In this document: positions 20,519-64,000 of the stretch, piece by piece
Position numbering within the stretch: the stretch's first letter is position 1
Layout of the letters: each line of letters starts with the position of its first letter
Program-made: the position numbers and the translations under genes
From: an uncultured Dictyoglomota bacterium
GTDB taxonomy: Bacteria > Dictyoglomota > Dictyoglomia > Dictyoglomales > Dictyoglomaceae
Reading direction: 5' to 3'
DNA length: 64,000 nucleotides
NCBI GenBank assembly: GCA_964612975.1
Contig: CAZTGC010000003.1
Coordinates: 140,724 to 204,723, forward strand
The notes under the pieces: model-generated
The model's input: only the letters and a program-made list of their open reading frames with translations
The model's database searches: none
Told to the model about the DNA's origin: nothing

Positions 20519-21763
20519 ATGTGGCGTAAAACTTTAGTAATCTTCTCCTTAATTTTCCTTCTTTTAGTTTTTTCCTCTTTAGCCCAATTAAAAGGCAAGT
20601 TGGAGATTTTCAGTTGGTGGACTGCAGGTGGAGAAGCAGAAGGTCTTCAAGCTCTCTTTGATATCTTCCACAAAAAATATCCTGCAGTAGAGATTATCAA
20701 TGCAACGGTTGCTGGTGGCGCTGGCGCCCAGGCAAAGGCAGTTTTAAAAACAAGAATGCTTGGTGGTGATCCTCCCGATACTTTCCAAGTCCATGCAGGG
20801 CATGAGTTAATCGATACCTGGGTAAAAACAGGATTTATGGAACCAGTCACCTTCTTATATAAAGAAGAGGGATGGCTTAAGGTAATGCCAAAGGGAATAT
20901 TGGACATAGTTTCCTATAGAGGAGAATACTGGTCTGTTCCAGTAAACATTCATAGGGCAAATGTTCTCTGGTACAATAAAAAGATTTTTGAGGAAAATAA
21001 ATTAACACCCCCAAGAACCTTTGATGAATTCTTTAAAGTAGCAGATACATTAAAGGCGAAGGGAATTATTCCATTAGCATTTGGAACAAAGGATGGATGG
21101 GAAGCTGCTCATGTGTTTGAAACAGTTTTAATTGGAAAATTAGGTGCAGAAGGATATAAGGGCCTTTGGACAGGAAAAACAAAATGGTCCGATCCAAAAG
21201 TTACCGATGCTTTAGAAACCTTTAAAAAGATGTTAACATATGTCAATCCAGATCATTCTGCAAGAACGTGGGATGAGGCATGTGCTTTAATTGTAGAAGA
21301 AAAGGCTGCAATGAATATTATGGGAGATTGGGCAGTAGGATACTTCTATGCAAAGGAATTCAAAGACTTTGGTTGGGTATTAGCTCCAGGAAATGCTAGA
21401 ATATTTGATGCTTTATCAGATAGTTTTGGCCTTCCTAAGAGGGTAAAGAACAGGAGTAATGTGATAGCATTTTTAAAAGTATTAGGTTCAAAAGAAGGGC
21501 AAGAGGTATTTAATATTAAGAAGGGATCAATTCCTGCAAGAACCGATGTAGACAAGACAAAATTCCCAGAATATCAAAAATCAGCTATGAACGACTGGTT
21601 AAAACATGCTATTGTACCCAGTGTAATGCATGGAGCAGCTGCATCTGAGGGATGGGTAACAGATTTTAAAGATGTAATTTCACTCTTTGTAGCATTTCCC
21701 AATGTACGTACTACCCAAAAGGCATTAGTTAGTATTGCTATAAAACAAGGGGTAAAACAGTAA
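20519..21763 (+). CDS. CUT1 sugar ABC transporter substrate-binding protein
   Basis: 414 aa. Signal peptide, then the KLEIFSWWTAGGEAEGL..L pattern typical of family-1 extracellular solute-binding proteins. Confidence 0.9.
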   Translation: MWRKTLVIFSLIFLLLVFSSLAQLKGKLEIFSWWTAGGEAEGLQALFDIFHKKYPAVEIINATVAGGAGAQAKAVLKTRMLGGDPPDTFQVHAGHELIDTWVKTGFMEPVTFLYKEEGWLKVMPKGILDIVSYRGEYWSVPVNIHRANVLWYNKKIFEENKLTPPRTFDEFFKVADTLKAKGIIPLAFGTKDGWEAAHVFETVLIGKLGAEGYKGLWTGKTKWSDPKVTDALETFKKMLTYVNPDHSARTWDEACALIVEEKAAMNIMGDWAVGYFYAKEFKDFGWVLAPGNARIFDALSDSFGLPKRVKNRSNVIAFLKVLGSKEGQEVFNIKKGSIPARTDVDKTKFPEYQKSAMNDWLKHAIVPSVMHGAAASEGWVTDFKDVISLFVAFPNVRTTQKALVSIAIKQGVKQ

Positions 21764-21770
21764 AAGAAAA

Positions 21771-21790
21771 GGGGGAGAAGAATCTCCCCC
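21771..21790 (+). terminator. intercistronic hairpin after the binding-protein gene (attenuator/terminator)
   Basis: GGGGGAGA-agaa-TCTCCCCC followed by CTTTTATATTTT. This position is typical between SBP and permease genes. Confidence 0.6.
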
Positions 21791-21814
21791 CTTTTATATT
21801 TTGGAGGGAAAAGA

Positions 21815-22717
21815 ATGAAGAAAATTAATAAAGAAAAGATTATTCCTTTTTTATTTATATTGCCTTCAATTATTTTAATAGCAATTTTTGTTTATGGATT
21901 TATAGGGTGGACGGGTTGGGTTTCCCTTGTAAATTGGAGAGATATTTTCCCAGACTTTACTTTTATAGGATTTAGAAATTATATTGATCTTTTCCAAAAT
22001 TATAGATTTCAGATCTCATTAAAAAATACCCTTGTATTTACATCTTTATTTTTAATTTCTTCAATTATTATTGGACTTTTATTAGCAATTCTTATTGATA
22101 GAAAAATTAGAGGGGAAAATATCTTTAGAAACATTTATCTTTTCCCCATGGCAATATCCTTTGTAGTTACTGGTGTTGTTTGGAGATGGCTATTAAATCC
22201 GGGGACTGGTGGAATAGAAGGATCCATAGGGATAAATATGCTTTTAGATAAACTGGGGCTTTCCTTCTTGAAAAGTGGATGGTATACAGATCCTGAAATA
22301 GGAATCAAAGCAGTAGTTATAGCAGCAGTTTGGCAAATGTCTGGATATGTAATGGCAATGTATCTTGCAGGTATAAGGGGAATTCCTACAGAGCTTTTTG
22401 AGGCAGCCCAAGTGGATGGTGCTAGCACTTTTGAGGTTTATAGATATATTATTCTTCCCCTTCTCCGTCCTATAACCCTTGGAGCTATAATTGTTTTAGG
22501 ACATATCTCCCTTAAAATCTTTGATTTAGTTTTTGCCATGACAGGAAGTGGTGTTGGATTTTCATGTGATGTTCCTGCATTATTTATGTATGATACCACA
22601 TTCAGAGGAAATTATTTCTCTCAAGGAGCAGGTATCGCAATAATTCTTTTAATCTCTGTTGCAGTACTAATAATACCATATCTAAGATACAGTTTAAGGG
22701 TGGAGGTTAAAAGATAA
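21815..22717 (+). CDS. sugar ABC transporter permease (MalF/UgpA-type)
   Basis: 300 aa, six TM segments, EAA loop FEAAQVDGASTFEVYRYIILPLL. Confidence 0.9.
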   Translation: MKKINKEKIIPFLFILPSIILIAIFVYGFIGWTGWVSLVNWRDIFPDFTFIGFRNYIDLFQNYRFQISLKNTLVFTSLFLISSIIIGLLLAILIDRKIRGENIFRNIYLFPMAISFVVTGVVWRWLLNPGTGGIEGSIGINMLLDKLGLSFLKSGWYTDPEIGIKAVVIAAVWQMSGYVMAMYLAGIRGIPTELFEAAQVDGASTFEVYRYIILPLLRPITLGAIIVLGHISLKIFDLVFAMTGSGVGFSCDVPALFMYDTTFRGNYFSQGAGIAIILLISVAVLIIPYLRYSLRVEVKR

Positions 22718-23559
22718 TGAAAATATCAAAAATTCTCCTTTATATTGTCCTTATTTTTTTTGCTGTTTTTTATTTAATGCCTGTTTACATACTTTTGACA
22801 ACAAGTTTTAAGAGCTTTGCAGAGGTAAATTTAAGAGAAATGTGGAATTTTCCGAAAAATTTTAGTTTTGAAAGTTTTATTCAGGCTTGGAGGGGTAATC
22901 CATCTCGAGGCCTAAGGGGCCTCTCCCAAAACTTTATGAATAGTATTTATCTTGTAATACCAGCTACCATAATCTCTGCCTTTTTAGGATCTTTAAATGG
23001 ATATGTTCTTACCAAATGGAAATTTAAAGGATCTGATATAATTTTTCCTTTACTTTTATTTGGTATGTTTATTCCATATCAAAGTATCCTTATTCCATTA
23101 GTTCAGGTTCTTCAAAAAACCAAATTATATGGATCAATTCCTGGTTTAATTTTTGTCCATTCCGTTTATGGAATTCCAATAACTACATTAATCTTTAGAA
23201 ATTATTATGCTACAATTCCCACAGAATTAATAGAGGCTGCCAAAATTGATGGTGCAGGATTTGCAGGAATTTATAGAAGAATAATTTTTCCTGTTTCCAT
23301 GCCGGGATTTGCAGTAGTTATGATTTGGCAATTTACATCAATATGGAATGATTTCTTATTTGGACTTGTTGTTGCACCAAATCCCTCTGTTCAGCCTATC
23401 ACTGTAGCATTAAACAACCTTGCAGGAAGTTATTTTGTTGAATGGAATATTCAGATGGCAGGAGCATTACTCACAGCTTTACCTCCCCTTTTAGTTTATA
23501 TCTTCCTTGGAAGATTTTTTATGAGGGGACTTCTTGCGGGATCTCTATCTGGAGTATAA
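22717..23559 (+). CDS. sugar ABC transporter permease (MalG/UgpE-type)
   Basis: 280 aa. EAA loop IEAAKIDGAGFAGIYRRIIFP. The start overlaps the upstream stop. Confidence 0.9.
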   Translation: MKISKILLYIVLIFFAVFYLMPVYILLTTSFKSFAEVNLREMWNFPKNFSFESFIQAWRGNPSRGLRGLSQNFMNSIYLVIPATIISAFLGSLNGYVLTKWKFKGSDIIFPLLLFGMFIPYQSILIPLVQVLQKTKLYGSIPGLIFVHSVYGIPITTLIFRNYYATIPTELIEAAKIDGAGFAGIYRRIIFPVSMPGFAVVMIWQFTSIWNDFLFGLVVAPNPSVQPITVALNNLAGSYFVEWNIQMAGALLTALPPLLVYIFLGRFFMRGLLAGSLSGV

Positions 23560-38726: not shown

Positions 38727-41700
38727 TTATTTCAAGATCCCAATGAACCTATTTATTCTTACCTCACCCTGATGAGAAGTTGAAACAAGCTGGAATAGAT
38801 AGAGTCCATTGGGTAAGTAAAGTCCTTTCCAATTTACCCCTTCCCATATTACTTCGTAATTTCCAGCAGAAAGATTCCCAAGATCCCTTTCGTATACCTT
38901 TTCTCCTGCAAGGTTATATACTATAAACCTTACCTTTGCATCTTGAGAAATATTAAAGTATATCTTCGCTGGTCCTTCTTTAGGATTAAAGGATTTTGTG
39001 AATTTTGTAACATTTAAAAGGGAAAGGGGTTGTCCCAAATTAATAATTGTTGTTGCAGAAATATATCTAGAATTATTTAATTCATCCTTTGCTGTTGCCT
39101 CAATAATATATTTTCCATTGGGAAGTAAAGCCCCACTTTCATCCTTTCCATTCCATGTATAATTAAAACTTCCATTGTTAACCCTTTGATTTTCAACTAT
39201 AGTCCTTACAAGATTATTCTTTTGTCCATTAACGGTGTTATAAACTTTAATTGTTAGATATGCATAACCTGAATCATCAAATACTGATCCACTTATATTA
39301 CAACTTCCAGTATTAGGATTGAAGGAGGATGAAACTGTTAGAGTTAAAGTTGGTGTATCAACTAATAAAGCCCTTGCTTTTCTTAAAAGTATTTCATTTA
39401 TAGAAATATCTACCCCCTCAAGCCCAAAGGAAAAGTATACTACCGCATATTTTTTTACTGGATCCACATATCTTAATCCTGCAGTTCCAGAGGATGCTAT
39501 TACTTTATTTACAATAGATGGTGCCTTTTGTTCCTTTATCTTTTCAGGAAGTTTTATCTCAGGAATAGGAAGGGATACTCCTAAAGGATTGTAAACTAAT
39601 AGGGCTTGTGCTCCCTCTAAAGGATCAATCTCATCTGGATAAAATTGATTTTGGGCAGAATTCTCTGTATTTAAATTAAAGGTTAATCCCTCAAAAGTTG
39701 TTCCACTAACACCCCTTATGGAATAAATTTCTGTATTATCTTGAACAAAACTTGCCTTGAGGTATCCTTTATAGAATGTTTCACTTATGTATCCTTTCGA
39801 ATATCCCCATCCTAAATCTTGGCTTGTAATAAATAATTTACCACCATTATTTAAATAGCTCATTATTTGATTTTGTACAGAAGAATAATAGATTGCTCCC
39901 CAATCTCCGGCCCAAAGAACCCAGTCATAATTTAACATGTAACCTACTGAGGGTATCGCATTATCTTTAAATACATCAATAATGTTATAGCCAATTCCTT
40001 CATCTACAAAGGCATTCTCTATAAAAGGTGCTATTCCAAATTCTCCTCCATCGTCGGAGATAATTAAAGCTTCTATGGTAGCTGGAGTCGTGAAGGATTT
40101 CTGATACCAAGGAGAATCTCCATTGGCATTACTTGCCCTTATCCTCGTATAATAGGTAGTTCCAAGGAAAAGAGGAGCATTTAATAGAGGGCGATATTCT
40201 GTATCTTGAGTCTTAATATCTATTACTAAATTACTAAAGTTTGGATCTTGTGCAACCTGTAAATTGTAGGAAGTAGCATAAGGAACTGGTGTCCATTTAA
40301 ATAATGGTCTTATAGTTAAAGGATTTTGGGAGTACCAACCCATATGATAAATAAAGGAAGGTTGTGCAGGCACTTCCGTTGATTTTACATATATATCGCA
40401 AGTAATATTATTTCCAGAAATAGCAATATTTCTTACAGCGACTGCTGTGGGAATTTCAAAATAAGCTTTGCTATTGGGAGTACTATTTTTATCAAAAGTT
40501 CGATTATTAGTAGATCCTGGATAAGGATGTCCCGTGTTGCCCGATGAAAGTCTTTTTTCTAATTCCCAAAGTCCATTTGCCTGTTCCAAAGCAACTAAAT
40601 AGTGTCTTGATGGATCAAGTCCTGGATACCATTCATAATCATTTTGAGTTTTCCTCATTTTCTCATCCACATGATAGATGAGAAGACCCTCTCCCATTAA
40701 ATAACTATCAAAGCCAATTTTTCTCCTATTCTCCAATAGGAAATATTCATCTCCAATAACTCCATCGGTCCAAAGCATATAAATTACTGGCTCTATCTCC
40801 ACAGGAGGTATAGAGACATTAATCAAATTATTTTCTGGGACTATTGGAGTTACCCATCCTAATTTAATCTTACACCAGGCGTCAAAATGAGAAGGAGAAC
40901 CTCCCATGGAATATCCCGAGGGTCCTTGTGGTCCATTCCAAGATCCGGCTGCCATTAAGCTCCATCTTCCAAGTCCCAAAGAAGAATAATCTCTATCATA
41001 AAGATCGGGAAGTTGTCCAAAGGAATGTCCCATTTCATGAACAAATACCCCTACCGTTGAGGGAATAATTTTACCTTTATCCTCCATGTATTCTGGTTCA
41101 ATAGAGTATCTTATAAGAAATAATTTTCCACCAATATTTACATAAACTGTGGATGCATGGGACCAAATATCATTTACATCTCCTGTCCATTCTGCTCCTT
41201 CTCCACTATGAATTACAAATACTACATCATAATTTCTTAAATCATATCCAGAATTTACTGCATGTTGTAAAACCTCTTTAACTAATGTAAAAACTCCACC
41301 ATCAAATCCATGATTTCCATCATTTATATAGTAGGTATAAGTATTTTGAGCAGTATACCAAGGAAGAATAGTTGCAGTTACATCAAATTTATTATAGGAG
41401 TTTTCTTTATAAAATTCCTTTACACTTCCTACATTGTAGGGATTAATATTACTCCAATTTGCCCCTTCACTATTAAAGAGTATTTCAAAATAATCTGAAG
41501 GAATATTGGCTTGTTTTGGCTTATCAGCAAATTCTACAGGGATTACTATTGCAGATCCTGTACCAGTTGTTTTTTCAATAACTCCATATATTTTTGCTTC
41601 CTTTGGAATACTTACAGGAGTAATTTCAGGTAAAGTTGGAAGCTTTATCTTTTTCTCTAAAAGTCTTTCATGGGGTGGCATAATTTTTACTTTAGTTAAG

Positions 41701-41771
41701 GGAAAAGTTTCTGCAAGGGTAAAAGAGAATAGGAGGATTAAGAATGCTAAAAACCCAAAACCTTTCTTCAT
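38727..41771 (-). CDS. secreted M6 (immune inhibitor A-like) metalloprotease with FN3, FlgD-Ig-like and C-terminal sorting-like domains
   Basis: 1014 aa. Signal peptide; VFVHEMGHSFGQLPDLYD, the M6 HExxHxxGxxD motif; an FN3-like segment (KWTPVPYATSYNLQVA...); a FlgD-Ig-like segment (YTWNGKDESGALLPNGKYII); and a terminal segment VRFIVYNLAGEKVYERDLGNLSAGNYEVIWEG...LPNGLYLFQLVS...RFIGILK. Confidence 0.85.
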   Translation of the reverse strand: MKKGFGFLAFLILLFSFTLAETFPLTKVKIMPPHERLLEKKIKLPTLPEITPVSIPKEAKIYGVIEKTTGTGSAIVIPVEFADKPKQANIPSDYFEILFNSEGANWSNINPYNVGSVKEFYKENSYNKFDVTATILPWYTAQNTYTYYINDGNHGFDGGVFTLVKEVLQHAVNSGYDLRNYDVVFVIHSGEGAEWTGDVNDIWSHASTVYVNIGGKLFLIRYSIEPEYMEDKGKIIPSTVGVFVHEMGHSFGQLPDLYDRDYSSLGLGRWSLMAAGSWNGPQGPSGYSMGGSPSHFDAWCKIKLGWVTPIVPENNLINVSIPPVEIEPVIYMLWTDGVIGDEYFLLENRRKIGFDSYLMGEGLLIYHVDEKMRKTQNDYEWYPGLDPSRHYLVALEQANGLWELEKRLSSGNTGHPYPGSTNNRTFDKNSTPNSKAYFEIPTAVAVRNIAISGNNITCDIYVKSTEVPAQPSFIYHMGWYSQNPLTIRPLFKWTPVPYATSYNLQVAQDPNFSNLVIDIKTQDTEYRPLLNAPLFLGTTYYTRIRASNANGDSPWYQKSFTTPATIEALIISDDGGEFGIAPFIENAFVDEGIGYNIIDVFKDNAIPSVGYMLNYDWVLWAGDWGAIYYSSVQNQIMSYLNNGGKLFITSQDLGWGYSKGYISETFYKGYLKASFVQDNTEIYSIRGVSGTTFEGLTFNLNTENSAQNQFYPDEIDPLEGAQALLVYNPLGVSLPIPEIKLPEKIKEQKAPSIVNKVIASSGTAGLRYVDPVKKYAVVYFSFGLEGVDISINEILLRKARALLVDTPTLTLTVSSSFNPNTGSCNISGSVFDDSGYAYLTIKVYNTVNGQKNNLVRTIVENQRVNNGSFNYTWNGKDESGALLPNGKYIIEATAKDELNNSRYISATTIINLGQPLSLLNVTKFTKSFNPKEGPAKIYFNISQDAKVRFIVYNLAGEKVYERDLGNLSAGNYEVIWEGVNWKGLYLPNGLYLFQLVSTSHQGEVRINRFIGILK

Positions 41772-43983: not shown

Positions 43984-44131
43984 AGATTTACCTCCTTTTG
44001 TTTTCCTTTATAAAAATACTAATAGAACAAAATTTTTCTTGTCAATATTTACAAAATTGTATCCATTTGCTTTATTCTTTTAAAAGATTATGAAATATGA
44101 TATAATGATAAAAATTTTAAATAGGAGAAGC

Positions 44132-46513
44132 ATGCCAGAAATTCTTTTAAAATCTAAATCCCTTGGGAAAATCTTAAGCTGGGAAAAGAAAGAATCCCTA
44201 ATACTTTATGGAGAGAATGAGAATTTAAGAATATATGTTTTATGGGACAAGGTTTTGAGATTTTATTTTTCCAAAAATAGAGAATGGAAACATGCCTCCT
44301 TTGTGGTAAAAGAAATTTCCCCTTCAAAAGATTTCTCTGTGGAGGAAAAAGAAGAAATTATTCTTAGGACAAAAATGCTAAGGGTTACCATAGATAAAAA
44401 TAGTGGAAAGATTAGTATATATAATAAAGACGGGGATTTAATACTTTCCGATTACCAAGATTGTGGGTATAGAATATTTAAAAATCGAGTATATTCTTAT
44501 AAAGAAATTAAGGAAGAGAAAGCCTTTTTAGGATTTGGAGAAAGAACTGGAAATTTAAATAAAAAAGGGAAAAGATTAACCAATTGGAATACCGACAATC
44601 CCCATCATTATACTAATATCGATTCCCTTTACCAATCTCATCCCTTTTTCTTAGCCTGGAATCCTAAAAAAAGCTATGGAATTTTCCTTGATAATACCTT
44701 TAGAACCTATTTTGACATGGGGAGGGAGAGTGAAAAATACTATTACTTCTATGCAGAGGATGGAGAATTGGACTATTACTTTTTCTATGGGCCTTCACCA
44801 AAAGAAGTATTGGAACTTTATACAGAGTTAACAGGAAGATATTATTTACCACCTCTATGGGCATTGGGCTATCAACAATCTCGGTGGAGTTATGCAACAG
44901 AAGAGGAAGTAAGAATATTGGCAAAGACCTTTAGAGAGAAAACAATTCCTTGTGATGTAATATATTTAGATATAGATTATATGGAAGATTTTAAAGTATT
45001 CACTATTAATAATAAAAGATTTCCCAATTTTCAAAGGATGATTGAGGATCTTTCCCTAAAGGGATTCAAAATTATACCCATTATAGATCCAGGAGTAAAG
45101 GTGGATTTAAATTATGACTTATATAAAGAGGGAATAGAAAAGGATCTTTTTTGCAAGAAATCTAATGGGAAAATATATACGGGATATGTATGGCCAGGAA
45201 AATGTGTTTTTCCTGATTTTATAAGGAAAGAAGTGAGGGAATGGTGGGAGGAAAAACAAAAGGAGATGATTAAATTAGGAATTTCAGGGTTCTGGAACGA
45301 TATGAATGAACCATCCTCCATGTCCCATATAGAATATCTCTTAATGAGATTACTCTTTTATCATCTTCATTTTAAAGAGCCTCCCTTTATTCCTCAAGTT
45401 CCTTGGAACAAAGAGAAAAAACCAAAGGAATTTTATAAAAAAACATTATCTTCTGATGTCCTTCATGGAGATAAAAGGGAATTTACCCATCATGAGATCC
45501 ATAATGTTTATGGCCTTCTAATGGTAGAGGCGTGTTTTGAAGGATGGAAGAAAGCTAAACCAAATCTTCGTCCCTTAATCATTACAAGAGCAGGATTTTC
45601 AGGAATTCAAAAATTTTCAGCAGTATGGACAGGAGATAATAAAAGCACTTGGGAGCATCTTTATATGTCTCTTCCTATGCTTCAAAATCTGAGTTTATCT
45701 GGAATTCCCTTTGTTGGTGCTGATGTGGGAGGTTTCTGGAAGGATTGTAACTCTGAACTTTTCATCCGTTGGATGGAACTTGGTACTTTTTATCCCTATT
45801 TTAGGAATCACTCTGCTATGAATACAAAAAATCAAGAACCTTGGAGTTTTGGAGAGAATGTGGAAAAAATTGTGAGAAATTATATAAATTTAAGGTATAA
45901 ACTTTTGCCGTATATTTATTCTCTATTCTGGGAAGCAAAAGAGAAGGGAATTCCCCCACTAAGATCATTAATAATGGAATTTCCAGAAGATCCTGAAGGT
46001 ATAATTCATGAGGATGAGTTTTTATTAGGCCCTAATTTATTGGTAGCTCCTATCTATAGGGAAGGAGAAAGAAAGAGACGGGTATATCTTCCAAAGGGAG
46101 ATTGGTATGATTTTTGGACAGGAGAAAAACTTACAGGACCTAATATATTTGAAGTTTCTGCCCCCTTAGAGATTATTCCTGTATTTGTAAAGGGAGGAAG
46201 TATTATACCCCTATGGGAACTTCAAAATTATGTAGGAGAAAAGGAACAGGAAAATTTGGAATTAAGAGTTTATGATGGAGAGGGAGAGTTTATTTTTTAT
46301 GAAGATGATGGATTTTCCTGGAATTATGAGAGGGGAGAATACAATCTTTTAAAATTTTCCCTCTCTAAGGAAAGGGAGGGATATATATTAAGCATTGAAT
46401 ATCTCCATAATGGTTATAAATCACCAAGAAAAAGATTTAGAATAGTAACCCTAAAGGGAAAAATAATAGAGGTAGAGGAGCAAAAAGCCGAAAAAATATA
46501 TTTATCACCTTAG
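44132..46513 (+). CDS. GH31 alpha-glucosidase/alpha-xylosidase
   Basis: Nucleophile motif GFWNDMNEPS, plus VIYLDIDYM and RAGFSGIQ..AVWTGDN. The track start 44090 lies upstream of an extended -10 (TGATATAAT, 44098-44106). ATG 44132 follows AGGAG. Confidence 0.9.
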   Translation: MPEILLKSKSLGKILSWEKKESLILYGENENLRIYVLWDKVLRFYFSKNREWKHASFVVKEISPSKDFSVEEKEEIILRTKMLRVTIDKNSGKISIYNKDGDLILSDYQDCGYRIFKNRVYSYKEIKEEKAFLGFGERTGNLNKKGKRLTNWNTDNPHHYTNIDSLYQSHPFFLAWNPKKSYGIFLDNTFRTYFDMGRESEKYYYFYAEDGELDYYFFYGPSPKEVLELYTELTGRYYLPPLWALGYQQSRWSYATEEEVRILAKTFREKTIPCDVIYLDIDYMEDFKVFTINNKRFPNFQRMIEDLSLKGFKIIPIIDPGVKVDLNYDLYKEGIEKDLFCKKSNGKIYTGYVWPGKCVFPDFIRKEVREWWEEKQKEMIKLGISGFWNDMNEPSSMSHIEYLLMRLLFYHLHFKEPPFIPQVPWNKEKKPKEFYKKTLSSDVLHGDKREFTHHEIHNVYGLLMVEACFEGWKKAKPNLRPLIITRAGFSGIQKFSAVWTGDNKSTWEHLYMSLPMLQNLSLSGIPFVGADVGGFWKDCNSELFIRWMELGTFYPYFRNHSAMNTKNQEPWSFGENVEKIVRNYINLRYKLLPYIYSLFWEAKEKGIPPLRSLIMEFPEDPEGIIHEDEFLLGPNLLVAPIYREGERKRRVYLPKGDWYDFWTGEKLTGPNIFEVSAPLEIIPVFVKGGSIIPLWELQNYVGEKEQENLELRVYDGEGEFIFYEDDGFSWNYERGEYNLLKFSLSKEREGYILSIEYLHNGYKSPRKRFRIVTLKGKIIEVEEQKAEKIYLSP

Positions 46514-55346: not shown

Positions 55347-56366
55347 GTGAAAATATCTCCACTAATAAAAGAAAAGGTCAAAGATGAGATTTTGAAATTC
55401 ATTGAGAGAAATAGAAGGGAAGAATATGTTAGAATTCCCTCGGAAAGAGATTTAGCAAAAAAATACAACGTTAGTAGAACCACTATTCGTTCTGTTATAA
55501 AAGAGCTTATAAATAGTGGCTTTATAATTCAGTTTCAAGGAAAAGGAACATATATACTTCCTAAACCGAGGGAAAAGAACCTTTATATAATATATTCCCC
55601 TGATATAAAGAAAAATGATCCCTTTTACACAAAATTTTTCTTGGAATTAACAGTTATCTCCTCAAAGGAAGATATAAATATAACATTTATTAATATTGAT
55701 AATTTACCTAATAAAATAAATGTTCCTTTAATTGTAGTGGGGCTTATCGAAGAAGATATCATGAAGAAAATAAAGGAATCCTATAATATCATAATTACTA
55801 TTGAGCAATATTTGAGTCAAGATGAGATAATCCAAGTATCTATAGATGATTATAAAATTGGATGGACTGCAGGAAATACTTTAATAAAATATGGATATAA
55901 AAATTTGATTCACTTGGCAGGTCCAGATAAATATACTGCTCCCTATTTAAGAAAGCTGGGCTTTATTGATAGATTAAAAAATGAAAAGAGAATCTCTTAT
56001 GAAATTATTGAGGGTAAAATGAATTGGAATTCTGGATATGAGCTCGGTGAGATTATTCTCCAAAGATTTAATGATATTAGAGCTCCTTTGGGTGTATTTA
56101 CAGCTAATGATTGGATGGCTATAGGATTAATACAAAGGCTAAGAGAAAATAAGATAAAAATTGGAGATGAGATTTCTATTATAGGTTGCGACAACATACC
56201 ATTAGCAAGCGAAGTAGTTCCACCTCTTACCACCTTCGATTGGAATGTAAAAAGCATTATGTTGGAGATTATTCATATGATTAATACTATATATTCTGGA
56301 AGAAGTTTACAAAATAAAAGAATTTTACTTCCAGCAAAATTAATTTTGAGAGAAACCTTAAGGTAG
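55347..56366 (+). CDS. AraR-type chimeric regulator: GntR-family wHTH fused to a LacI/PBP1-type sugar-binding domain
   Basis: 339 aa with a GTG start. N-terminus IPSERDLAKKYNVSRTTIRSVIKELINSGFI..FQGKGTYI is GntR-type. The remainder carries LacI/GalR effector-domain blocks (FTANDWMAIGLIQRL..., ISIIGCDNIPLA). Confidence 0.75.
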   Translation: MKISPLIKEKVKDEILKFIERNRREEYVRIPSERDLAKKYNVSRTTIRSVIKELINSGFIIQFQGKGTYILPKPREKNLYIIYSPDIKKNDPFYTKFFLELTVISSKEDINITFINIDNLPNKINVPLIVVGLIEEDIMKKIKESYNIIITIEQYLSQDEIIQVSIDDYKIGWTAGNTLIKYGYKNLIHLAGPDKYTAPYLRKLGFIDRLKNEKRISYEIIEGKMNWNSGYELGEIILQRFNDIRAPLGVFTANDWMAIGLIQRLRENKIKIGDEISIIGCDNIPLASEVVPPLTTFDWNVKSIMLEIIHMINTIYSGRSLQNKRILLPAKLILRETLR

Positions 56367-56420: not shown

Positions 56421-56449
56421 TTGACAAAATTTGTTTTGAATGATAAGAT
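56421..56449 (+). promoter_or_regulatory. sigma-70-type promoter (extended -10) of the malEFG-like/GH53 operon
   Basis: TTGACA (56421-56426), 17-nt spacer ending in TG, TAAGAT (56444-56449). Confidence 0.6.
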
Positions 56450-56565: not shown

Positions 56566-57759
56566 ATGAGAAGAATCTTAATAGTTTTAGCTTTAACCCT
56601 TTCTTTAATAGTTTTTTCTCTAACTTCTGCCCAAGCTACAAAAATAACTATTTGGTGCTCTGAAAAACAGGTGGATATTCTCCAGAGATTAGGAGAAGAA
56701 TTTAAGGCAAAATATGGGGTTGCTGTTGAAGTTCAATATGTGGAATTTGGATCCATTAAGCCCAACTTCTTAACTGCTGCTCCCCAAGGAAAAGGTGCAG
56801 ATATTATTGTAGGAGCCCATGATTGGGTAGGAGAATTAGTGGTAAATGGATTATTGGAACCAATTCCTGAATTCAAAGATATAAAACAATTTTATGAAAC
56901 TTCCCTTAAAGCCTTTTCTTATGGTGGAAAGCTCTATGGTTTACCCTATGCTATGGAAGCTATAGCTTTAATTTATAATAAAGACTATGTCAAAACCCCA
57001 CCCTTAACCATGGAAAGCTTGATTACCACAGCAAAAAGAATAAACACTGCATATAAAGGTAAAGTAAAGGGATTTGTTACCAGTGCAGCAGAATTCTATT
57101 ATGTAGCACCTGTCATTTTTGGACAGGGAGGATATGTATTTAAAGATACTCCTTCAGGACTTGATGTATCTGATATTGGGCTTGCAAATCCTGGAGCTGT
57201 AAAGGGTGTAAAATTATGGAAAAGATTAGTAGATGAGGGACTTTTAAGCCCTGGAGATAACTATCAAATAATGGATTCTTTATTCAAAGAAGGGAAGGCA
57301 GCAATGATCATAAATGGGCCCTGGGCAGTCAAAGCCTATAAAGATGCAGGGGTAAATTATGGGGTAAGTGTTATTCCTAATTTAGAGGCAAAGATTCCTG
57401 CAAAACCATTTGTTGGTGTTCAAGGGTTTATGGTAAATTCAAAATCACCAAATAAAGTTCTTGTCAGAGAATTTCTCATAAGCTTTATTTCTACAAAGGA
57501 TACCATGTATAAGATTTATCTTGCAGATCCAAGAATTCCTTCAAGAAAGGATGTTCTTGCCCTTGTAAAAGATAACCCTGATATCGTTGGATTCACAAAG
57601 AGTGCTTCCAACGGAATACCAATGCCCAATGTCCCAGAAATGGCTGCAGTTTGGGGTGCCATGAATGATGCCCTTAATTTAGTGGTAAATGAAAAGGCAA
57701 CTCTAGAGGATGCCCTTAATAATGCGGTGAAAACTATAAAAGCTCAAATTAAAAAGTAA
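56566..57759 (+). CDS. MalE/CycB(GanS)-family oligosaccharide-binding protein
   Basis: 397 aa. Signal peptide, KITIWCSEKQ..., GADIIVGAHDWVGEL, INGPWA blocks of the maltodextrin/cyclodextrin/galactooligosaccharide SBP family. Confidence 0.85.
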   Translation: MRRILIVLALTLSLIVFSLTSAQATKITIWCSEKQVDILQRLGEEFKAKYGVAVEVQYVEFGSIKPNFLTAAPQGKGADIIVGAHDWVGELVVNGLLEPIPEFKDIKQFYETSLKAFSYGGKLYGLPYAMEAIALIYNKDYVKTPPLTMESLITTAKRINTAYKGKVKGFVTSAAEFYYVAPVIFGQGGYVFKDTPSGLDVSDIGLANPGAVKGVKLWKRLVDEGLLSPGDNYQIMDSLFKEGKAAMIINGPWAVKAYKDAGVNYGVSVIPNLEAKIPAKPFVGVQGFMVNSKSPNKVLVREFLISFISTKDTMYKIYLADPRIPSRKDVLALVKDNPDIVGFTKSASNGIPMPNVPEMAAVWGAMNDALNLVVNEKATLEDALNNAVKTIKAQIKK

Positions 57760-57822: not shown

Positions 57823-59559
57823 GTGATTAAAGTATTAAAAATCTTTTTATTGTTTTTATTAGCATTATTTAACGCTATCCTTTTATTATTTGGAATTTAT
57901 CTTATTCAAAACGCCTATTATGAGATTGGAATTGTTCTTCTTTCTGCTCTCATACTTATAGATTTCTTCATTCTTAATCCCAAAGCTTATCCCTACAGAT
58001 ATACAATTCCCGCCCTTATTTTCCTATTTCTCCTTGTCCTTTATCCTATTTATTTTACAATTAAAACTGCCTTTACTAATTTTGGAACGGGACATATATT
58101 TACAAAAGAGGAAACTATTGAAAGGCTTCTTTATGATCCCAACTACACCTACATTTTAGAAGAAAAACCTATAAAATTTAAGATATTCTCAGTCTTTAAA
58201 GATTCCCAACCCCAAGATGATTTTTTAATAATTTTTGAAATTGACAAGAAATATTATGTAGCTGGTATTCCCCACCCAAGTAAACAAAGGGGAAGAGAAG
58301 TTCTTTTAAGAGAAGGAAAACTAGTAAGGATAGAAGATAAAAATTTTAAGTTAAATGGGAGATCCTTTGAAGTTTCTCCTTATCCCTTTATTCTTTCCAA
58401 TATAGATTTGATTTCAACCTCAGATAAGGTGTATAAATCTGTCTATATGTTAGAAGATCCTGAACTGGAAAAAAACTTTTCCTTTTTTACATTGATTATT
58501 CAGAAATATTTGATTCAAACAGAATATATTGAGCCAGAAACTGGAAAAATTTTAGGAGTAAAAGTAGATAGCGATGGAAGATGGAAATTCTTTTTTATAG
58601 ACAGGCTTTACAGACTTTCCTATGAGGATATTAGAGAAAATGGTAAGATTAAGACAAAACTTGTAATTGTTAATACAAAAACTAAAAAGCCTATTATTGA
58701 AGAAAAGGGTTCCTTTTTTGATCAAGATGAAAAGGGAAATAGAATTTTTTTAGTAGGATACACTGCCTTTATTGGATTTGAAAACTTTTCAAGGATTTTA
58801 ACTGATGAACAAATCTCAGGACCATTTCTTAGAGTGTTTCTATGGACAGTTCTTTGGTCCCTATTTACTGTTTTATTTTCCTTTTCTCTAGGACTTTCTT
58901 TAGCTCTGATACTTAATAATAGGAAATTAAAATTTAGAAATATTTATAGAACTTTACTCATTATCCCCTGGGCAATCCCTTATTTTATATCGGTTTTAAC
59001 TTGGAGAAATGGAATTTTTAATGAAACCTATGGTATTCTTAATAAAATTATTCTTCCCTTCTTAGGAATTGAGCCTATAAAATGGTTTAATGATCCCTTC
59101 TGGGCTAAGGTTATTTGTTTAACTGTAAATACTTGGCTTACCTTCCCATATATGATGACTGTTTCCTTAGGAGCCCTTCAGGGAATACCTGATGAGCTTT
59201 ATGAGGTTGCAGCAATTGATGGCGCGGGAAAATGGAATAGATTTTGGTATATTACCTTCCCATTACTTCTTACAGTGGTTGCTCCTTTACTTATTAGTAG
59301 TTTTGCCTATACCTTTAATAACTTCACTCTTATTTACCTTTTGACTGCTGGTGGTCCTCCTATGGTGGGAGCAACAACTCCTGCAGGACATACAGATATT
59401 TTAATTTCCTATGTATATAAATTAGCCTTTGAGGGAAGAGGACAAGAATTTGGTTTTGCAAGTTCTATAGCTATTCTCATCTTCTTTTTAGTTGCAGGAA
59501 TAAGCCTCATAAACTTTAAATTATCAGGAGCTTTTGAAGAGATAAGAGGTGAGCAATAA
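57823..59559 (+). CDS. MalF-type permease with a large P2-like external loop
   Basis: 578 aa with a GTG start. Three N-terminal TM segments, an external loop of about 230 aa, then the EAA loop YEVAAIDGAGKWNRFWYITFPLL. Confidence 0.85.
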   Translation: MIKVLKIFLLFLLALFNAILLLFGIYLIQNAYYEIGIVLLSALILIDFFILNPKAYPYRYTIPALIFLFLLVLYPIYFTIKTAFTNFGTGHIFTKEETIERLLYDPNYTYILEEKPIKFKIFSVFKDSQPQDDFLIIFEIDKKYYVAGIPHPSKQRGREVLLREGKLVRIEDKNFKLNGRSFEVSPYPFILSNIDLISTSDKVYKSVYMLEDPELEKNFSFFTLIIQKYLIQTEYIEPETGKILGVKVDSDGRWKFFFIDRLYRLSYEDIRENGKIKTKLVIVNTKTKKPIIEEKGSFFDQDEKGNRIFLVGYTAFIGFENFSRILTDEQISGPFLRVFLWTVLWSLFTVLFSFSLGLSLALILNNRKLKFRNIYRTLLIIPWAIPYFISVLTWRNGIFNETYGILNKIILPFLGIEPIKWFNDPFWAKVICLTVNTWLTFPYMMTVSLGALQGIPDELYEVAAIDGAGKWNRFWYITFPLLLTVVAPLLISSFAYTFNNFTLIYLLTAGGPPMVGATTPAGHTDILISYVYKLAFEGRGQEFGFASSIAILIFFLVAGISLINFKLSGAFEEIRGEQ

Positions 59560-61808
59560 TGGTTGGAGAAGGAAGAAAAAATTTATTAACCCATTTAATT
59601 CTCTTAATTATTATTCCTATAATTCTTTTTCCTATAATTTGGGTAGTATCAACTTCTATAAGAAGAGATGAGGCTGCATTCTCAACAAAGCTTTTTTCTT
59701 CAAGATTAACCCTTCAACACTACATAGATTTGGTAGCCCCTGAGAAGAATATTCCTGTTCTTGTTCAAGAAATTCAAAATTTAGTGTTAAGGACACCTCC
59801 ATACAATAAATGGGATGAAAAAAGAATAAAGAAACTTATTGATGAGGACTTAAGGAGACTTCAAGATTATGTAAAGGAAACCCAAGAAAGATATGAAAAT
59901 TCGAAGAAATTATTTAACAAAGTAAATAACTTTCTTACTTCTAAAAATGAAGATATTAAAAGTAAAACCTTATCAATCCTTTTGGAGTTAAAGGACTTTT
60001 TAGAAAGAAAAATCCCAAAGGAAGAAGCAGGAAGAATAGAAATTGAGAAGTATAATAACTTAAAAGTTCTTAAAGAAAGATTTTCTAAGATTTCAGAAAG
60101 GATAAATAAAAATTTGATGGAGATTAATAGAATTAAAAATAGATATTCATCCCTTCAAGAGAGCATCCTTAATATAAATAAGGAGTTTAGTTATGAGATA
60201 AATCCTAAAATCGAATTAATAAATAAGAAATTAACGGAGGAAACAAATGTTATACCTGCCTCCTTTTTCCAGTCTAAAAATAAAAACCTCTTATCTAAAT
60301 CCTTAGAAATTTTAAAAAATTTAACTGAAAAAGTTGAAGGATATCCTGATCTTTCTCAAACTCTTAATGACTTAAAAAATCTCCATCACAATTTAGAATA
60401 TAATTGGAATCCATTCTCCCCTCAATCTAAGGAAATATATTTCAGCATAAAGGAATTAGATTCTAAAATCTCCATGGCAATATCTATGTTGGAAAATAAC
60501 ATAAGAAATCTTAAAGAGGAAGAAAGAAAATTAGCCCTATTGGAGCAAGAAAATGAATTCTTAGAGATACAAAGGGAGCTTCTAGGAACTGAGATGGAAG
60601 AAGAGGAAGAAGAATTAAAGCCTATTTCCAAATATTCAGAACTTAAGACCTTCTTAAAAAATTTAGATGGGAAAATAAAGGAAATTGAAGATGCAAAAAA
60701 TTTCAAAGATTTAGTTATTGTATGTGTCCCCTTAGAAGAGGAATTTAGAAATTTTGTAAGTGAATATATTTTAAGCTTTGATAGAGATGAATTAGTAGGC
60801 AAAATAGAATCAGCTGTAGATAAATTGAGATGGTTTCAAGAATATAATACCTTCCTAAATAAGTTTGAATTTTTTTCTAAAAATCTGAATAATACAATAG
60901 AAAAAACTAAGATATATCTTTCTGATTTATCCTTAACAGGAAAATCTCTAAATCCAAATCTTTTAGATACTCTATATGATATTGCTAAAACTGATTATGT
61001 AAATCTTGTAAGTCCTAATATGAATATAGTTTCTAAAAAGGCAGGAGATTTAATAGATCTACTTCCCTACAAGGATGTTAAAGGAGATTTAAAGGGAATT
61101 GATGGAGAATTATTTAGAATTGACCAAGTTTGGAAGCAAAAAACAAGACACTACTTTTTAAGATGGGTAAGAAATTCAATTTTTGTTGCTGGTATCTCTG
61201 CAATTATAACCACTATTGTATGCTCCATAGCTGCTTATCCCTTTAGTAGGTTGAGATTTTGGGGAAGAAAATATGGAATAATGACTCTCCTTTTAATTCA
61301 GATGTTTCCAAGTGCAGTTTATATGATTGCGATTTATAGTCTTCTGAACCTACTTGGCAAATTTGTTCCCTTTTTAGGACTTGACACTCTAACAGGTCTT
61401 ACCTTTGTCTACTTAGGTAATATTGCATACAATATGTATATAATTAAAGGCTTCTATGATACAATTCCTGATTCCTTAGAGGAGTCAGCAATGATCGATG
61501 GAGCAACAAGATTTCAAACCTTCTATAAGATAGTTATTCCCCTTGCCCGCCCTATTCTTGCAGTAGTGATAATTTTAACCTTCATGGGTGTTTTTAATGA
61601 ATTTATCTTTGCAAGAATTATATTGCGGGATGCTAAAAATTATACCTATGCCATTGGTCTATGGACTTTCTCCTCAGGACCATACCTTACAGAATGGGGT
61701 TTATTTACGGCTGCTGCCCTTCTTGGAATGCTCCCTATGACCATATTATTCCTTTCCCTTCAAAGATATATAGTTTCTGGACTTACAAAGGGAGCAGTAA
61801 AAGGTTAA
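59559..61808 (+). CDS. MalG-type permease with a roughly 470-aa insertion between TM1 and TM2
   Basis: 749 aa. Both ends align with E. coli MalG as I recall it (FPIIWVVSTSIRR; VRNSIFVAGISAI...; EESAMIDGATRFQTFYKIVIPLARP; QRYIVSGLTKGAVKG). Residues about 60-535 are K/E/N/L-rich with no TM segment. Confidence 0.85.
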   Translation: MVGEGRKNLLTHLILLIIIPIILFPIIWVVSTSIRRDEAAFSTKLFSSRLTLQHYIDLVAPEKNIPVLVQEIQNLVLRTPPYNKWDEKRIKKLIDEDLRRLQDYVKETQERYENSKKLFNKVNNFLTSKNEDIKSKTLSILLELKDFLERKIPKEEAGRIEIEKYNNLKVLKERFSKISERINKNLMEINRIKNRYSSLQESILNINKEFSYEINPKIELINKKLTEETNVIPASFFQSKNKNLLSKSLEILKNLTEKVEGYPDLSQTLNDLKNLHHNLEYNWNPFSPQSKEIYFSIKELDSKISMAISMLENNIRNLKEEERKLALLEQENEFLEIQRELLGTEMEEEEEELKPISKYSELKTFLKNLDGKIKEIEDAKNFKDLVIVCVPLEEEFRNFVSEYILSFDRDELVGKIESAVDKLRWFQEYNTFLNKFEFFSKNLNNTIEKTKIYLSDLSLTGKSLNPNLLDTLYDIAKTDYVNLVSPNMNIVSKKAGDLIDLLPYKDVKGDLKGIDGELFRIDQVWKQKTRHYFLRWVRNSIFVAGISAIITTIVCSIAAYPFSRLRFWGRKYGIMTLLLIQMFPSAVYMIAIYSLLNLLGKFVPFLGLDTLTGLTFVYLGNIAYNMYIIKGFYDTIPDSLEESAMIDGATRFQTFYKIVIPLARPILAVVIILTFMGVFNEFIFARIILRDAKNYTYAIGLWTFSSGPYLTEWGLFTAAALLGMLPMTILFLSLQRYIVSGLTKGAVKG

Positions 61809-61823
61809 AAGGAGGCGGAATTG

Positions 61824-63689
61824 ATGAGATTTCAAAAATTTTTCTCCATAATAAATATAACTATGTTGGGATTAAGTTTTCTTCTTTATTTAGGATTTTC
61901 TAACACAGAGATTATTGTAAATCCCATTGAAAATCTTAGGAAAGATTTTATTAAAGGGATTGATGTTTCTATGCTTTATCAAATTGAAGAGAATGGTGGC
62001 AAATTTTATGATAATGGTATAGAGAAGGATCCCCTGGAAATATTAAAGAATCATGGAGTAAATTGGATAAGATTAAGAGTTTGGAATGATCCCTTTGATG
62101 AAACAGGACAGCCCTTTGGGGGAGGGAATTGTGATTATGTAAAAATAACCAAAATTGCTCAAAGGGCAAAATCCTTAGGATTAAAAGTATGCCTCGATTT
62201 TCATTATAGTGATTGGTGGGCAGATCCAGGAAAACAGAATAAGCCCAAGGCATGGAAAAATCTTAAAGGAACTTCCTTAGTGAAAGAAGTTTCTAATTTT
62301 ACCTTTAAAGTTTTAGATTATATGAAAAAGAATAATGCCCTCCCCGATATGGTTCAACTTGGAAATGAGGTTAACAATGGTTTCTTATGGCCTGATGGAC
62401 AACTTATTGGGGTTAATGTGGGAGGATTTGATGGTTTTGTAAAATTACTAAATGCAGGTATAAGTTCTGTAAGAAGAGTAAGCAGATCTATAAAAATTGC
62501 CATTCATTTGTCCGATGGTGGAAACAATTCTTTGTACCGATGGTTCTTTGAAGAAATAACAAGAAGGAAAGTAGATTTTGATGTTATTGGAGTATCCTAT
62601 TATCCATATTGGCATGGTACCCTTGATGAACTAAGAGCTAATCTAAATGATATCTCCCAAAGATATAATAAGGACGTAGCAATCCTTGAAACTGCTTATG
62701 CTTGGACATTACAAGATATAGATGGACATCCCAATATCTTTGGAGGAGATATGGAGATAATGGGGGGATATAAAGCAACAATTCAGGGACAAGCTACTGC
62801 AATAAGAGATATTATGGAAGTTGTTGCTCAAGTTCCAAATGGAAGAGGTTTAGGAATATTTTATTGGGAGGGATGTTGGATACCTGTAAAGGGAGCTGGC
62901 TGGAAAGAAGGGGAAGGAAATCCCTGGGAAAATCAAGCTCTATTTGATTTTAATGGTAATACTCTTCCTTCCTTAGATGTTTTTAATCTTGTTTATGGTA
63001 AAACCTATGTAAAACTCAAACCAAAGGAATTGCTTTCCATTATAAATATAAAAATTTCCACAGGAGAGACACCCAAATTTCCTGAAAAGGTTAGAATTTT
63101 ATTTTCCGATGATGCCATAAGATCAATCCCAGTAATTTGGGAAGAAATTGATAAATCATTAATATCCACCCCTGGTAGTTTCAAAGTAAAAGGTATTGTG
63201 AAGGATGTTAATATTGAAGTATCTGCAAATATCACTGTTGTAGGAGAAAGGATTTTTGTCCAAAATCCAAGTTTTGAATCAGGAGGTTTTGAGCCTTGGA
63301 TAGTGGTAGGAGATAAGACTGCGGTGAAGGTTGTTAAAGCAAGTCCCCCTCAGAATGCTAAATCAGGAGAATATGCAGTAAATTATTGGCTTGATAAACC
63401 ATTTAAATTTGAAATGTATCAAGTGGTAAAGGGACTTAAAGATGGAGTCTATAAGGTAAGTTTTTGGATTCAAGGTGGCGGAGGAGAAAATATTCTAAAA
63501 CTTAAAGTGAGCGAATATGGTGGAGAGGATCTATTTTTAGATATTGTAAATACAGGCTGGCTTAAATGGAGTAATCCCACTATAAAGGGAATAAAGGTTT
63601 CCACAGGTCAATGTAAAATCAGTATAATTATTGACGGAAATACAGGAAATTGGGGTTGGATTGATGATTTTGAGCTAAAAGAGGAATAG
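61824..63689 (+). CDS. ganB: GH53 endo-beta-1,4-galactanase with C-terminal Ig-like and carbohydrate-binding-like domains
   Basis: GIDVSMLYQIEENGGKFYD, NWIRLRVWNDP, VQLGNEVNNG (acid/base) and AILETAYAW (nucleophile) are GH53 blocks. The C-terminal 150 aa (FVQNPSFESGGFEPW...WIDDFEL) form a galactose-binding-like jelly roll. ATG 61824 is preferred over TTG 61821. Confidence 0.9.
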   Translation: MRFQKFFSIINITMLGLSFLLYLGFSNTEIIVNPIENLRKDFIKGIDVSMLYQIEENGGKFYDNGIEKDPLEILKNHGVNWIRLRVWNDPFDETGQPFGGGNCDYVKITKIAQRAKSLGLKVCLDFHYSDWWADPGKQNKPKAWKNLKGTSLVKEVSNFTFKVLDYMKKNNALPDMVQLGNEVNNGFLWPDGQLIGVNVGGFDGFVKLLNAGISSVRRVSRSIKIAIHLSDGGNNSLYRWFFEEITRRKVDFDVIGVSYYPYWHGTLDELRANLNDISQRYNKDVAILETAYAWTLQDIDGHPNIFGGDMEIMGGYKATIQGQATAIRDIMEVVAQVPNGRGLGIFYWEGCWIPVKGAGWKEGEGNPWENQALFDFNGNTLPSLDVFNLVYGKTYVKLKPKELLSIINIKISTGETPKFPEKVRILFSDDAIRSIPVIWEEIDKSLISTPGSFKVKGIVKDVNIEVSANITVVGERIFVQNPSFESGGFEPWIVVGDKTAVKVVKASPPQNAKSGEYAVNYWLDKPFKFEMYQVVKGLKDGVYKVSFWIQGGGGENILKLKVSEYGGEDLFLDIVNTGWLKWSNPTIKGIKVSTGQCKISIIIDGNTGNWGWIDDFELKEE

Positions 63690-63707
63690 GGGAGGAATAT
63701 CCTCCCC
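63689..63707. terminator. bidirectional terminator hairpin
   Basis: GGGGAGGA-ata-TCCTCCCC between convergent genes, overlapping the GH53 stop codon. Confidence 0.65.
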
Positions 63708-63713
63708 AACTCC

Positions 63714-64000
63714 TTATATTATCCCTTTTTCTTTAAATACTTCGTAAGCTTCTTTTATGAATTCAGGACTTGTTCCGCAACATCCTCCAATAAAATTTAT
63801 ACCTAAATCCAACATCTCTTCCACAAAAACTGCAAAATCAGAAGGAGATTCAGAATAAGTTAATCTTCCATCTAAAATTTTAGGAATACCTGCATTAGGC
63901 TGTATTAACACAGGAAGATTTGTTGATTTTCTAACAATAGGAGCTATCTTCTTCATATCTTCAATTCCCTTCCCACAATTTGATCCCACAAAATCTGCAC
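63714..64000 (-). CDS. homocysteine S-methyltransferase domain protein (MetH/BHMT-like); 5' part beyond the window
   Basis: The C-terminal segment ...NCGKGIEDM...PVLIQPNAGIP...FIGGCCGTSPEFI carries the zinc-binding GGCCGT motif of the Hcy-binding domain. Confidence 0.75.
   Translation of the reverse strand, partial: ADFVGSNCGKGIEDMKKIAPIVRKSTNLPVLIQPNAGIPKILDGRLTYSESPSDFAVFVEEMLDLGINFIGGCCGTSPEFIKEAYEVFKEKGII

Follow-up and report, generated by a model that had tools for sequence, protein, structure and literature searches.

A long MalG: a predicted all-helical domain in the P1 loop of an oligosaccharide importer permease from an uncultured Dictyoglomota bacterium

The window analysed here is a stretch of 64,000 nucleotides from an uncultured Dictyoglomota bacterium (GenBank assembly GCA_964612975.1, contig CAZTGC010000003.1, positions 140,724 to 204,723 of the forward strand). 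It carries an operon in the order malE, malF, malG and a glycoside hydrolase family 53 (GH53) gene. The malG gene is a 'long MalG', the permease of a MalEFG-type oligosaccharide ATP-binding cassette (ABC) importer that has acquired a domain, all-helical as modelled, in P1, the loop between its first and second transmembrane segments (TM1 and TM2). The parts of the gene, with the residues that they encode, are as follows.

59559..61808 (+): malG-type ABC permease gene bearing the insert, a single uninterrupted frame of 749 amino acids
59583..59654 (+): TM1, residues about 9-32 (hydropathy segment 5-36; pairs with Escherichia coli MalG TM1)
59655..59816 (+): conserved membrane-adjacent start of P1, residues 33-86, RRDEAAFS...LTLQxYxDLxAPEKNxPVL...TPPY (many invariant columns; block conservation 0.69-0.86)
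59817..60692 (+): variable helical 'stalk', predicted helices A-D, residues 87-378 (AlphaFold2 predicted local distance difference test score, pLDDT, mostly 85-95; lowest conservation; holds the indels)
60591..60617 (+): acidic patch EMEEEEEEL, residues 345-353, then LKP, within predicted helix D (read from the sequence)
60702..61133 (+): better-conserved predicted helices E-H, residues 382-525, returning to the membrane (AlphaFold2; invariant F399, W425, V484, L498, D515 and R520)
61134..61154 (+): conserved junction before TM2, DQvWKQKTrHYF, residues 522-533 (invariant W525, K528 and Y532)
61155..61805 (+): MalG core with TM2-TM6, the EAA region and the C-terminal GLTKGAVKG (pairs with E. 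coli MalG 81-296)

To both sides of the insert the protein is MalG, as a sequence-only reading of this DNA had proposed. Residues 13-58 of E. coli MalG (2r6g_G) pair with window residues 8-54, at TM1, and residues 81-296 pair with 533-749, from TM2 to the C-terminus (E = 8.4e-58). The NCBIfam MalG model (NF008231) matched the protein in two stretches (E = 4.6e-71, 239.8 bits), far ahead of the runner-up UgpE at 75 bits; its equivalog cut-off of 261 bits was not reached because the insert splits the match in two. The Pfam family BPD_transp_1 (PF00528) was limited to residues 557-742 (E = 6.7e-15). The insert itself comprises residues 55-532 (nucleotides 59721-61154), about 478 hydrophilic residues in a place where about 22-36 residues of E. 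coli MalG stay unaligned, and a family profile, which aligned E. coli MalG 9-45 and 82-296, set the E. coli P1 residues 46-81, without aligning them, opposite about 494 residues of the window MalG. Its earlier extent of 59736-61150 corresponds to residues 60-531. It had been described as some 470 residues rich in K, E, N and L, with an acidic patch and no hydrophobic segment, and both composition (L 13.4%, K 12.3%, E 12.1%, N 9.2%) and hydropathy agree: no hydrophobic segment was found in the insert, the top 19-residue Kyte-Doolittle mean being 0.77 against more than 1.5 in the transmembrane segments. An exact insertion point, sought by equating TPPY (80-83) with the E. coli TPPPFP anchor, was unsupported by the profile alignment. 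The insert-coding region also contains an antisense open reading frame (ORF) of 126 amino acids (60422-60802, minus strand), S/L-rich as the mirror of the K/E/N/L-rich sense frame, which is most likely not a gene.

By homology, the TM1-TM2 loop with its insert is likely to be periplasmic and to lie beside the docking site of MalE. TM1 and TM2-TM6 have their homologues in the solved E. coli MalG and the insert has no membrane-spanning segment, which together argue that the insert lies outside; the same follows for the loop from the EAA region, since this region must face the cytoplasmic MalK. The earlier assignment of the insert to the first external loop agrees with this topology. Family-wide, the N-terminus before TM1 is more basic than the RRDE stretch following TM1.

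An independent assembly (Logan SRR8369793, locus L060) contains a 94%-identical malG of exactly 749 codons in the same operon, regulator-malE-malF-malG-GH53. Between the window and this copy, the ratio of nonsynonymous to synonymous substitution rates (dN/dS; counts small throughout) was 0.32 for the insert, with 0.12 in the membrane-proximal parts and 0.46 over residues 111-479, against 0.12 for MalE and 0.11 for MalF, and the MalG core showed zero nonsynonymous changes. These values indicate translation of the insert and purifying selection on it, with less constraint than in the rest of MalG. Intact long malG ORFs are also present in the complete genomes of Fervidobacterium islandicum and F. 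thailandense and in a 1.96-Mb contig of Dictyoglomus thermophilum, and the GC content is unbroken across the malG gene of the window. A chimeric assembly or a hidden frameshift, which the sequence-only reading had wished to see excluded, can be set aside as far as sequence comparison shows, given the independent copy, 48 intact homologous ORFs elsewhere, the continuous GC content and the purifying selection.

To describe the fold of the insert, two AlphaFold2 models were used. In the model of full-length MalG (34 sequences) the insert had a pLDDT of about 85-93 and the transmembrane core was poorly modelled because the alignment was shallow; the insert modelled alone (20 sequences) gave a pLDDT of 85.7 and a predicted template modelling score (pTM) of 0.60. 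The insert is entirely alpha-helical in both models, with the same helices, given here by residue and all as predicted by AlphaFold2.

Residues 87-151: helix A
Residues 160-227: helix B
Residues 242-282: helix C
Residues 289-378: helix D, about 90 residues long, enclosing P355 and the acidic patch
Residues 382-407: helix E
Residues 411-459: helix F
Residues 466-501: helix G
Residues 505-525: helix H

The longest predicted helix has 91 residues and would measure about 13 nm if straight. Long antiparallel helices in the insert are thus supported by the models. The insert had been called heptad-like on inspection. Its long helices are predicted with confidence; a heptad coiled coil is at most a candidate, the signal for a 3.5-residue hydrophobic periodicity in a Fourier test being weak and patchy. 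An internal duplication of helical modules was considered and rejected: the best of the hhalign sub-alignments (AB against CD) reached a probability of 63%, unconvincing given the biased helical composition.

Conservation is unevenly spread along this structure. Blocks at residues 21-80 and 481-540 scored 0.55-0.86, and those at residues 121-400 scored 0.28-0.44 (0.28-0.5 for the middle block of the insert). Homologues differ by large indels at the A-B and C-D hairpins, and the length of the insert, which varies from about 470 to 680 amino acids, does so in the middle, the membrane-adjacent ends being conserved. From the conservation profile, the positions of the indels and the predicted secondary structure we infer a conserved membrane-adjacent base (residues 33-86 and 382-532) carrying a stalk of variable length (87-378). 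We hold this structural description of the long MalG, a helical P1 domain made of base and stalk, with high confidence. The acidic patch is acidic in the Dictyoglomota and Atribacterota relatives and not in Thermotoga. In the centre of helix D (60519-60560, residues about 321-334) the motif KLAxLxQENEFLEMQxELL is strongly conserved in Dictyoglomota and close unnamed relatives, diverged in Atribacterota (EENTLLKNQQELL) and not conserved in Thermotogota. This conserved island in the variable stalk could mark a clade-specific contact site.

We looked for a characterised domain to which the insert could belong. Pfam searches with the full protein and 14 inserts returned only scattered, sub-threshold and mutually inconsistent helical or coiled-coil families. 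In a sequence search of the PDB the best hit of the insert had E = 0.06 (single sequence), and in a profile search the best (E = 1.4e-4) was apolipoprotein A-IV, a compositional match. Foldseek comparison of the two models with PDB and BFVD gave no significant fold match (TM-scores 0.26 or less, identity 9-17%); only one match, from the viral library, reached E <= 1e-3 (E = 5.3e-4, TM 0.12). The chemoreceptor sensor fold of the 4HB/HBM type was approached by 8f7n, the McpZ sensing domain, at E = 0.08-0.31 with a TM-score of 0.18 or less. A characterised domain was accordingly rejected on the Pfam, NCBIfam, PDB sequence and Foldseek searches.

The domain is nevertheless not confined to this genome. 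With the insert alone as the query we obtained 40 proteins, all permeases of 602-829 amino acids with PF00528; identity over the insert was 36-45% in Dictyoglomus and 30% in the Thermotoga maritima protein (E = 7.5e-48), so that the comparison with T. maritima MalG proposed earlier did reveal a homologous insert. Among 1.84 billion cluster representatives, 16 clusters match the insert, the full-length ones being long MalG-like proteins of 780-933 amino acids and the rest fragments. A profile of 14 inserts found 145 proteins, all with PF00528, and added Atribacterota, Fervidobacterium and Pseudothermotoga. In contigs taken from one genome per species, 59 loci (numbered L001 onwards) were collected from Dictyoglomota, Atribacterota, many Thermotogota genera and one Tissierellaceae bin. 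Intact ORFs were present at 48 of these 59, with inserts of 534-677 amino acids; by the same yardstick the window insert has about 500. Length follows lineage: Fervidobacterium inserts have about 555 amino acids, those of Thermotoga and Pseudothermotoga about 577, and those of several unnamed Thermotogaceae metagenome-assembled genomes (MAGs), two of them labelled Kosmotogaceae, 668-677. The domain was found only inside MalG proteins, with no stand-alone carrier among the matches.

Directly upstream, nearly all of the loci have malE and malF, the latter of constant length (556-582 amino acids). The length of MalF co-varies with that of the MalG insert (r = 0.76), but this is a phylogenetic effect of few residues and was rejected as evidence. 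A GH53 gene follows malG at some loci only (L001-L005, L010, L011 and L017), and there are mal operons with the insert and without GH53, for example in Fervidobacterium (L013-L016). The assembly closest to the window is that of locus L031 (95-98% identity), followed by the Dictyoglomaceae locus L001 (MalF 73%, GH53 76%). MalE of the window is 74-86% identical to that of Dictyoglomota, Atribacterota and Thermotogota loci (L003, L004 and L005), compared with about 35-45% for the MalG insert. The contrast suggests that the operon has been passed as a whole from phylum to phylum, with the insert evolving at several times the rate of its partners.

Two groups of loci depart from this pattern. Four Thermotogaceae bins (L026, L030, L037 and L059; e.g., L059:7005-9452) have an orphan long malG, without adjacent malE or malF. 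By a motif-based estimate the orphan proteins have about 781-789 amino acids (raw ORFs 815-818), and the neighbouring genes encode a uracil-DNA glycosylase, an iron-dependent repressor, an epimerase, a phosphodiesterase and a PhoH-like protein. The sole locus beyond the three phyla is L045, in the Tissierellaceae bin (JAPXKQ010000058.1), with a MalG of 870 amino acids and an insert of 620. Its long MalG resembles those of unnamed Thermotogota/Thermotogae MAGs (L044 and L058), and the locus could be a true transfer into Bacillota or a mis-binned contig.

The insert as such has been reported before. Noll, Lapierre, Gogarten and Nanavati (2008) described a hydrophilic stretch about 500 amino acids long between TM1 and TM2 of the Thermotogales MalG1 and MalG2 as an 'unusual domain architecture' (PMC2246101). 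The region was similar to no known protein, was absent from MalG3 and other bacteria, and had no known function; it was stated to occur in no other MalG and to have been recently acquired within Thermotogales, and an eight-TM MalF with a large loop was also noted (PMC2246101). The presence of the insert in Dictyoglomota and Atribacterota means that both 2008 claims, that no other MalG has it and that Thermotogales acquired it recently, need revision. In the later literature we found nothing on the insert beyond the 2008 paper, and a 2026 review of glycoside transporters is silent on it. The sequence-only reading, which knew of no described function for such an insertion, is thus still right on that point, although the feature itself was already on record (PMC2246101). 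The window MalG adds one more member to a family known from the literature; new are the spread of the insert beyond Thermotogales and its predicted fold. A domain of about 500 residues, conserved and selected, beside the site where the binding protein docks, has stayed unexplained for 18 years, and to it we add an occurrence outside Thermotogales, a conserved base with a variable-length stalk, and a confident model. Among type I ABC importers MalFGK2-MalE is the textbook case, well understood apart from this domain. We know of no solved importer with a large helical domain in a MalG loop.

The other genes of the operon and its flanks were annotated as follows.

55347..56366 (+): regulator with a GntR-type helix-turn-helix fused to a LacI-type sugar-binding domain, 5' of the operon (Pfam GntR, Peripla_BP_3)
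56421..56449 (+): promoter-like site TTGACA, 17 nucleotides, TAAGAT, with TG, 5' of malE (consensus scan only)
56566..57759 (+): malE-type solute-binding protein, 397 amino acids, signal peptide ending AQA (NCBIfam MalE E = 1.6e-86; Pfam SBP_bac_8, SBP_bac_1)
57823..59559 (+): malF-type permease, 578 amino acids, extended at the N-terminus and bearing a large loop (NCBIfam MalF E = 5.3e-109; DUF4896, TM_PBP2_N, BPD_transp_1)
61821..63689 (+): GH53 endo-beta-1,4-galactanase-type enzyme with Big_4 and a hydrophobic N-terminus (Pfam PF07745 E = 8.3e-133; PF07532)

An operon ending in a GH53 gene, as first read, is confirmed by the PF07745 match and the hydrophobic N-terminus of its product, which also has a weak CBM_4_9 match under the cut-off. 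A GntR/LacI-type regulator likewise stands 5' of malE in L031 and L060. A strong GGAGG-like ribosome-binding site precedes each of the four operon genes. The malF stop and the malG start overlap as TAATG (59555-59561), with the Shine-Dalgarno-like AGAGGTGA 5' of malG, and the overlap together with the strong sites suggests that the two permeases are translationally coupled. In the promoter and terminator scans the site counts were not above those in shuffled sequence. MalE scored 290.6 bits against the NCBIfam MalE cut-off of 291, and 224.6 bits against GanS, with a cut-off of 700. The adjoining GH53 gene suggests that the real transported substrate may be beta-1,4-galacto-oligosaccharides. 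At 63689-63707 a GC-rich hairpin, GGGGAGGATATTCCTCCCC, separates the GH53 gene from a convergent homocysteine S-methyltransferase gene (63714-63989, cut by the window end), and may be a shared terminator.

Elsewhere in the window, a second sugar ABC system of the CUT1 type (20519-23559, plus strand) has a 414-amino-acid binding protein and ordinary permeases of 300 and 280 amino acids. As an internal control, these permeases tie the insert to the Mal-type system specifically. A GH31 glycosidase (807 amino acids, 44090-46513, plus strand), an M6 (immune inhibitor A-type) peptidase (1014 amino acids, C-terminal FlgD immunoglobulin (Ig)-like domains, 38727-41771, minus strand) and UxaE (1316-2764) add to a window rich in carbohydrate-use genes. 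Neither Rfam families nor tRNA were found anywhere in the 64-kb window.

What could such a domain do? We prefer an accessory arm that docks or retains MalE, because the insert replaces the tip of the MalE-contacting P1, is restricted to Mal-type systems and has a conserved base. The enlarged P1 would then elaborate the normal role of P1: the conserved base and the MalF P2 loop would shape a docking platform for MalE, and the projecting helical arm would capture MalE, or keep it, possibly loaded with sugar, near the transporter in a roomy periplasm. We put the probability of this reading at roughly 0.3 to 0.4, and several observations weigh against it. The distal stalk, the expected captor, is the least conserved part and has the highest dN/dS, a variability more in keeping with a spacer or ruler than with a surface for specific binding. 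MalE has no extra feature that could pair with an arm, its 397 amino acids being the size of E. coli MalE. Finally, the orphan long malG genes, which belong to one Thermotogaceae lineage, lack both malE and malF as neighbours.

Instead of holding MalE, the insert might tether the importer to the envelope, as a rod passing through the cell wall to an outer component (toga, porin or surface-bound glycanase) and coupling polysaccharide breakdown or entry to import. Thermotogota, Dictyoglomota and Atribacterota have unusual outer envelopes, and the insert is almost confined to these three phyla. The very long predicted helices also fit a tether, as does a stalk whose length is lineage-specific and constant within a lineage, as a ruler would show, and so does the GH53 enzyme with a hydrophobic N-terminus encoded after malG here and at the eight loci named above. 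The phyletic pattern, however, is equally explained by operon transfer, considering the MalE identity of 74-86% across the three phyla. Moreover, many mal operons have the insert but no GH53 gene, orphan genes have it too, and other sugar ABC permeases of the same organism do without it, as the ordinary permeases of the window show; the insert is therefore not a general importer adaptation to this envelope. Length is a further difficulty. The Omp-alpha spacer that spans the Thermotoga periplasm measures about 45 nm, and a rod of 10-14 nm is far shorter. We consider a tether, the main rival of the MalE arm, unlikely on balance. The sequence-only reading had proposed a tether or docking arm to the binding protein, the glycanase or the outer envelope: its periplasmic, helical and uncharacterised insert has held up, but the link to GH53 is weakened by the operons without GH53 and the orphan malG genes, and the reach to an outer sheath by the ordinary permeases of 300 and 280 amino acids in the same window. 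In a bolder form, the rod would be the inner-membrane half of a trans-envelope import machine that docks an outer channel or surface glycanase and passes long oligosaccharides directly to MalE/MalFG. This is a long shot; if true, the machine would be the importer counterpart of the tripartite efflux pumps, arising among bacteria whose envelopes are toga-like and spread among these by operon transfer.

Roles that involve neither delivery nor an outer partner seem less likely than the MalE arm or the tether. The antiparallel helices could pair between transporters or with a periplasmic protein and so cluster or stabilise the complex as a scaffold, for instance at high temperature. Oligomerisation is a common role of coiled-coil-like helices, the distal part keeps its helical character and length while its sequence is weakly constrained, and the hosts are mostly thermophiles, judged from record titles. 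AlphaFold2, on the other hand, packs the helices within one chain with high confidence, and the longest inserts are found in mesophilic lineages, such as the Kosmotogaceae-type MAGs (growth temperatures from general knowledge), leaving a scaffold somewhat less probable than a tether. A periplasmic sensor or regulatory domain, in which a stacked helical bundle like 4HB/HBM would bind a ligand and gate the transporter, is improbable. In its favour, Foldseek weakly paired the insert with 8f7n, the sensing domain of McpZ, and with models of methyl-accepting chemotaxis proteins, but at E = 0.08-0.3 and a TM-score of 0.18 or less these matches lack significance. None of the 14 inserts matched a Pfam sensor family, and no conserved pocket-like motif was seen in the variable middle. 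An artefact, whether misassembly, frameshift fusion or an insert that is really cytoplasmic, has a negligible chance in view of the 749-amino-acid ORF in an independent assembly, the intact ORFs in complete genomes, the continuous GC content, the purifying selection, and the EAA region facing MalK, which forces the TM1-TM2 loop outside.

An arm that did capture MalE, or did form a bridge to the envelope, would be a novel mode of operation for ABC importers whose periplasm is wide or unusual. The closest known systems compare as follows. The Thermotogales MalG1 and MalG2 (TM1202 and its paralogue) belong to the same family and have the insert at the same TM1-TM2 position, alignable end to end; they share the order malE-malF-malG, and GH53 is downstream in several Thermotogota loci. 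Compared with them, the window insert is among the shortest (about 500 against 534-677 amino acids) and lacks about 50 residues at the A-B hairpin, and the nearest relatives of the window MalG are those of Dictyoglomaceae.

Similar to E. coli MalG (2R6G), the window protein has TM1, TM2-TM6, the EAA region, the region of the P3 'scoop loop' and GLTxGxVKG in alignable positions, and its partners are MalF and MalE, but P1 has about 45 residues in E. coli MalG and about 500 in the window. The E. coli P1 loop contacts MalE according to cross-linking data cited in a review, and the P2 loop of E. coli MalF, an Ig-like domain of about 180 residues, extends about 3 nm (PMC6906923). P2 resembles the insert in being a large extra domain in a periplasmic permease loop adjoining the MalE docking site, and is a precedent for a loop that holds the binding protein. 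The MalG insert, in contrast, is all-alpha as predicted, about 2.5 times larger and far more elongated, and the window MalF has a large loop of its own.

The antiparallel coiled-coil arms of SMC, MukB, Rad50 and the dynein stalk are the only Foldseek neighbours of the insert, a likeness of shape and not homology. Unlike the insert, these arms are cytoplasmic and flank ATPase heads. Long periplasmic helices that are anchored in the inner membrane and bridge outward are found in the alpha-hairpins of AcrA/MacA-type adaptors, in TolA domain II and in Thermotoga Omp-alpha. We found no sequence or fold match between these and the insert, and the analogy is one of function only: AcrA/MacA, TolA and Omp-alpha are separate polypeptides, whereas the insert of the window MalG is a loop of the importer permease itself.

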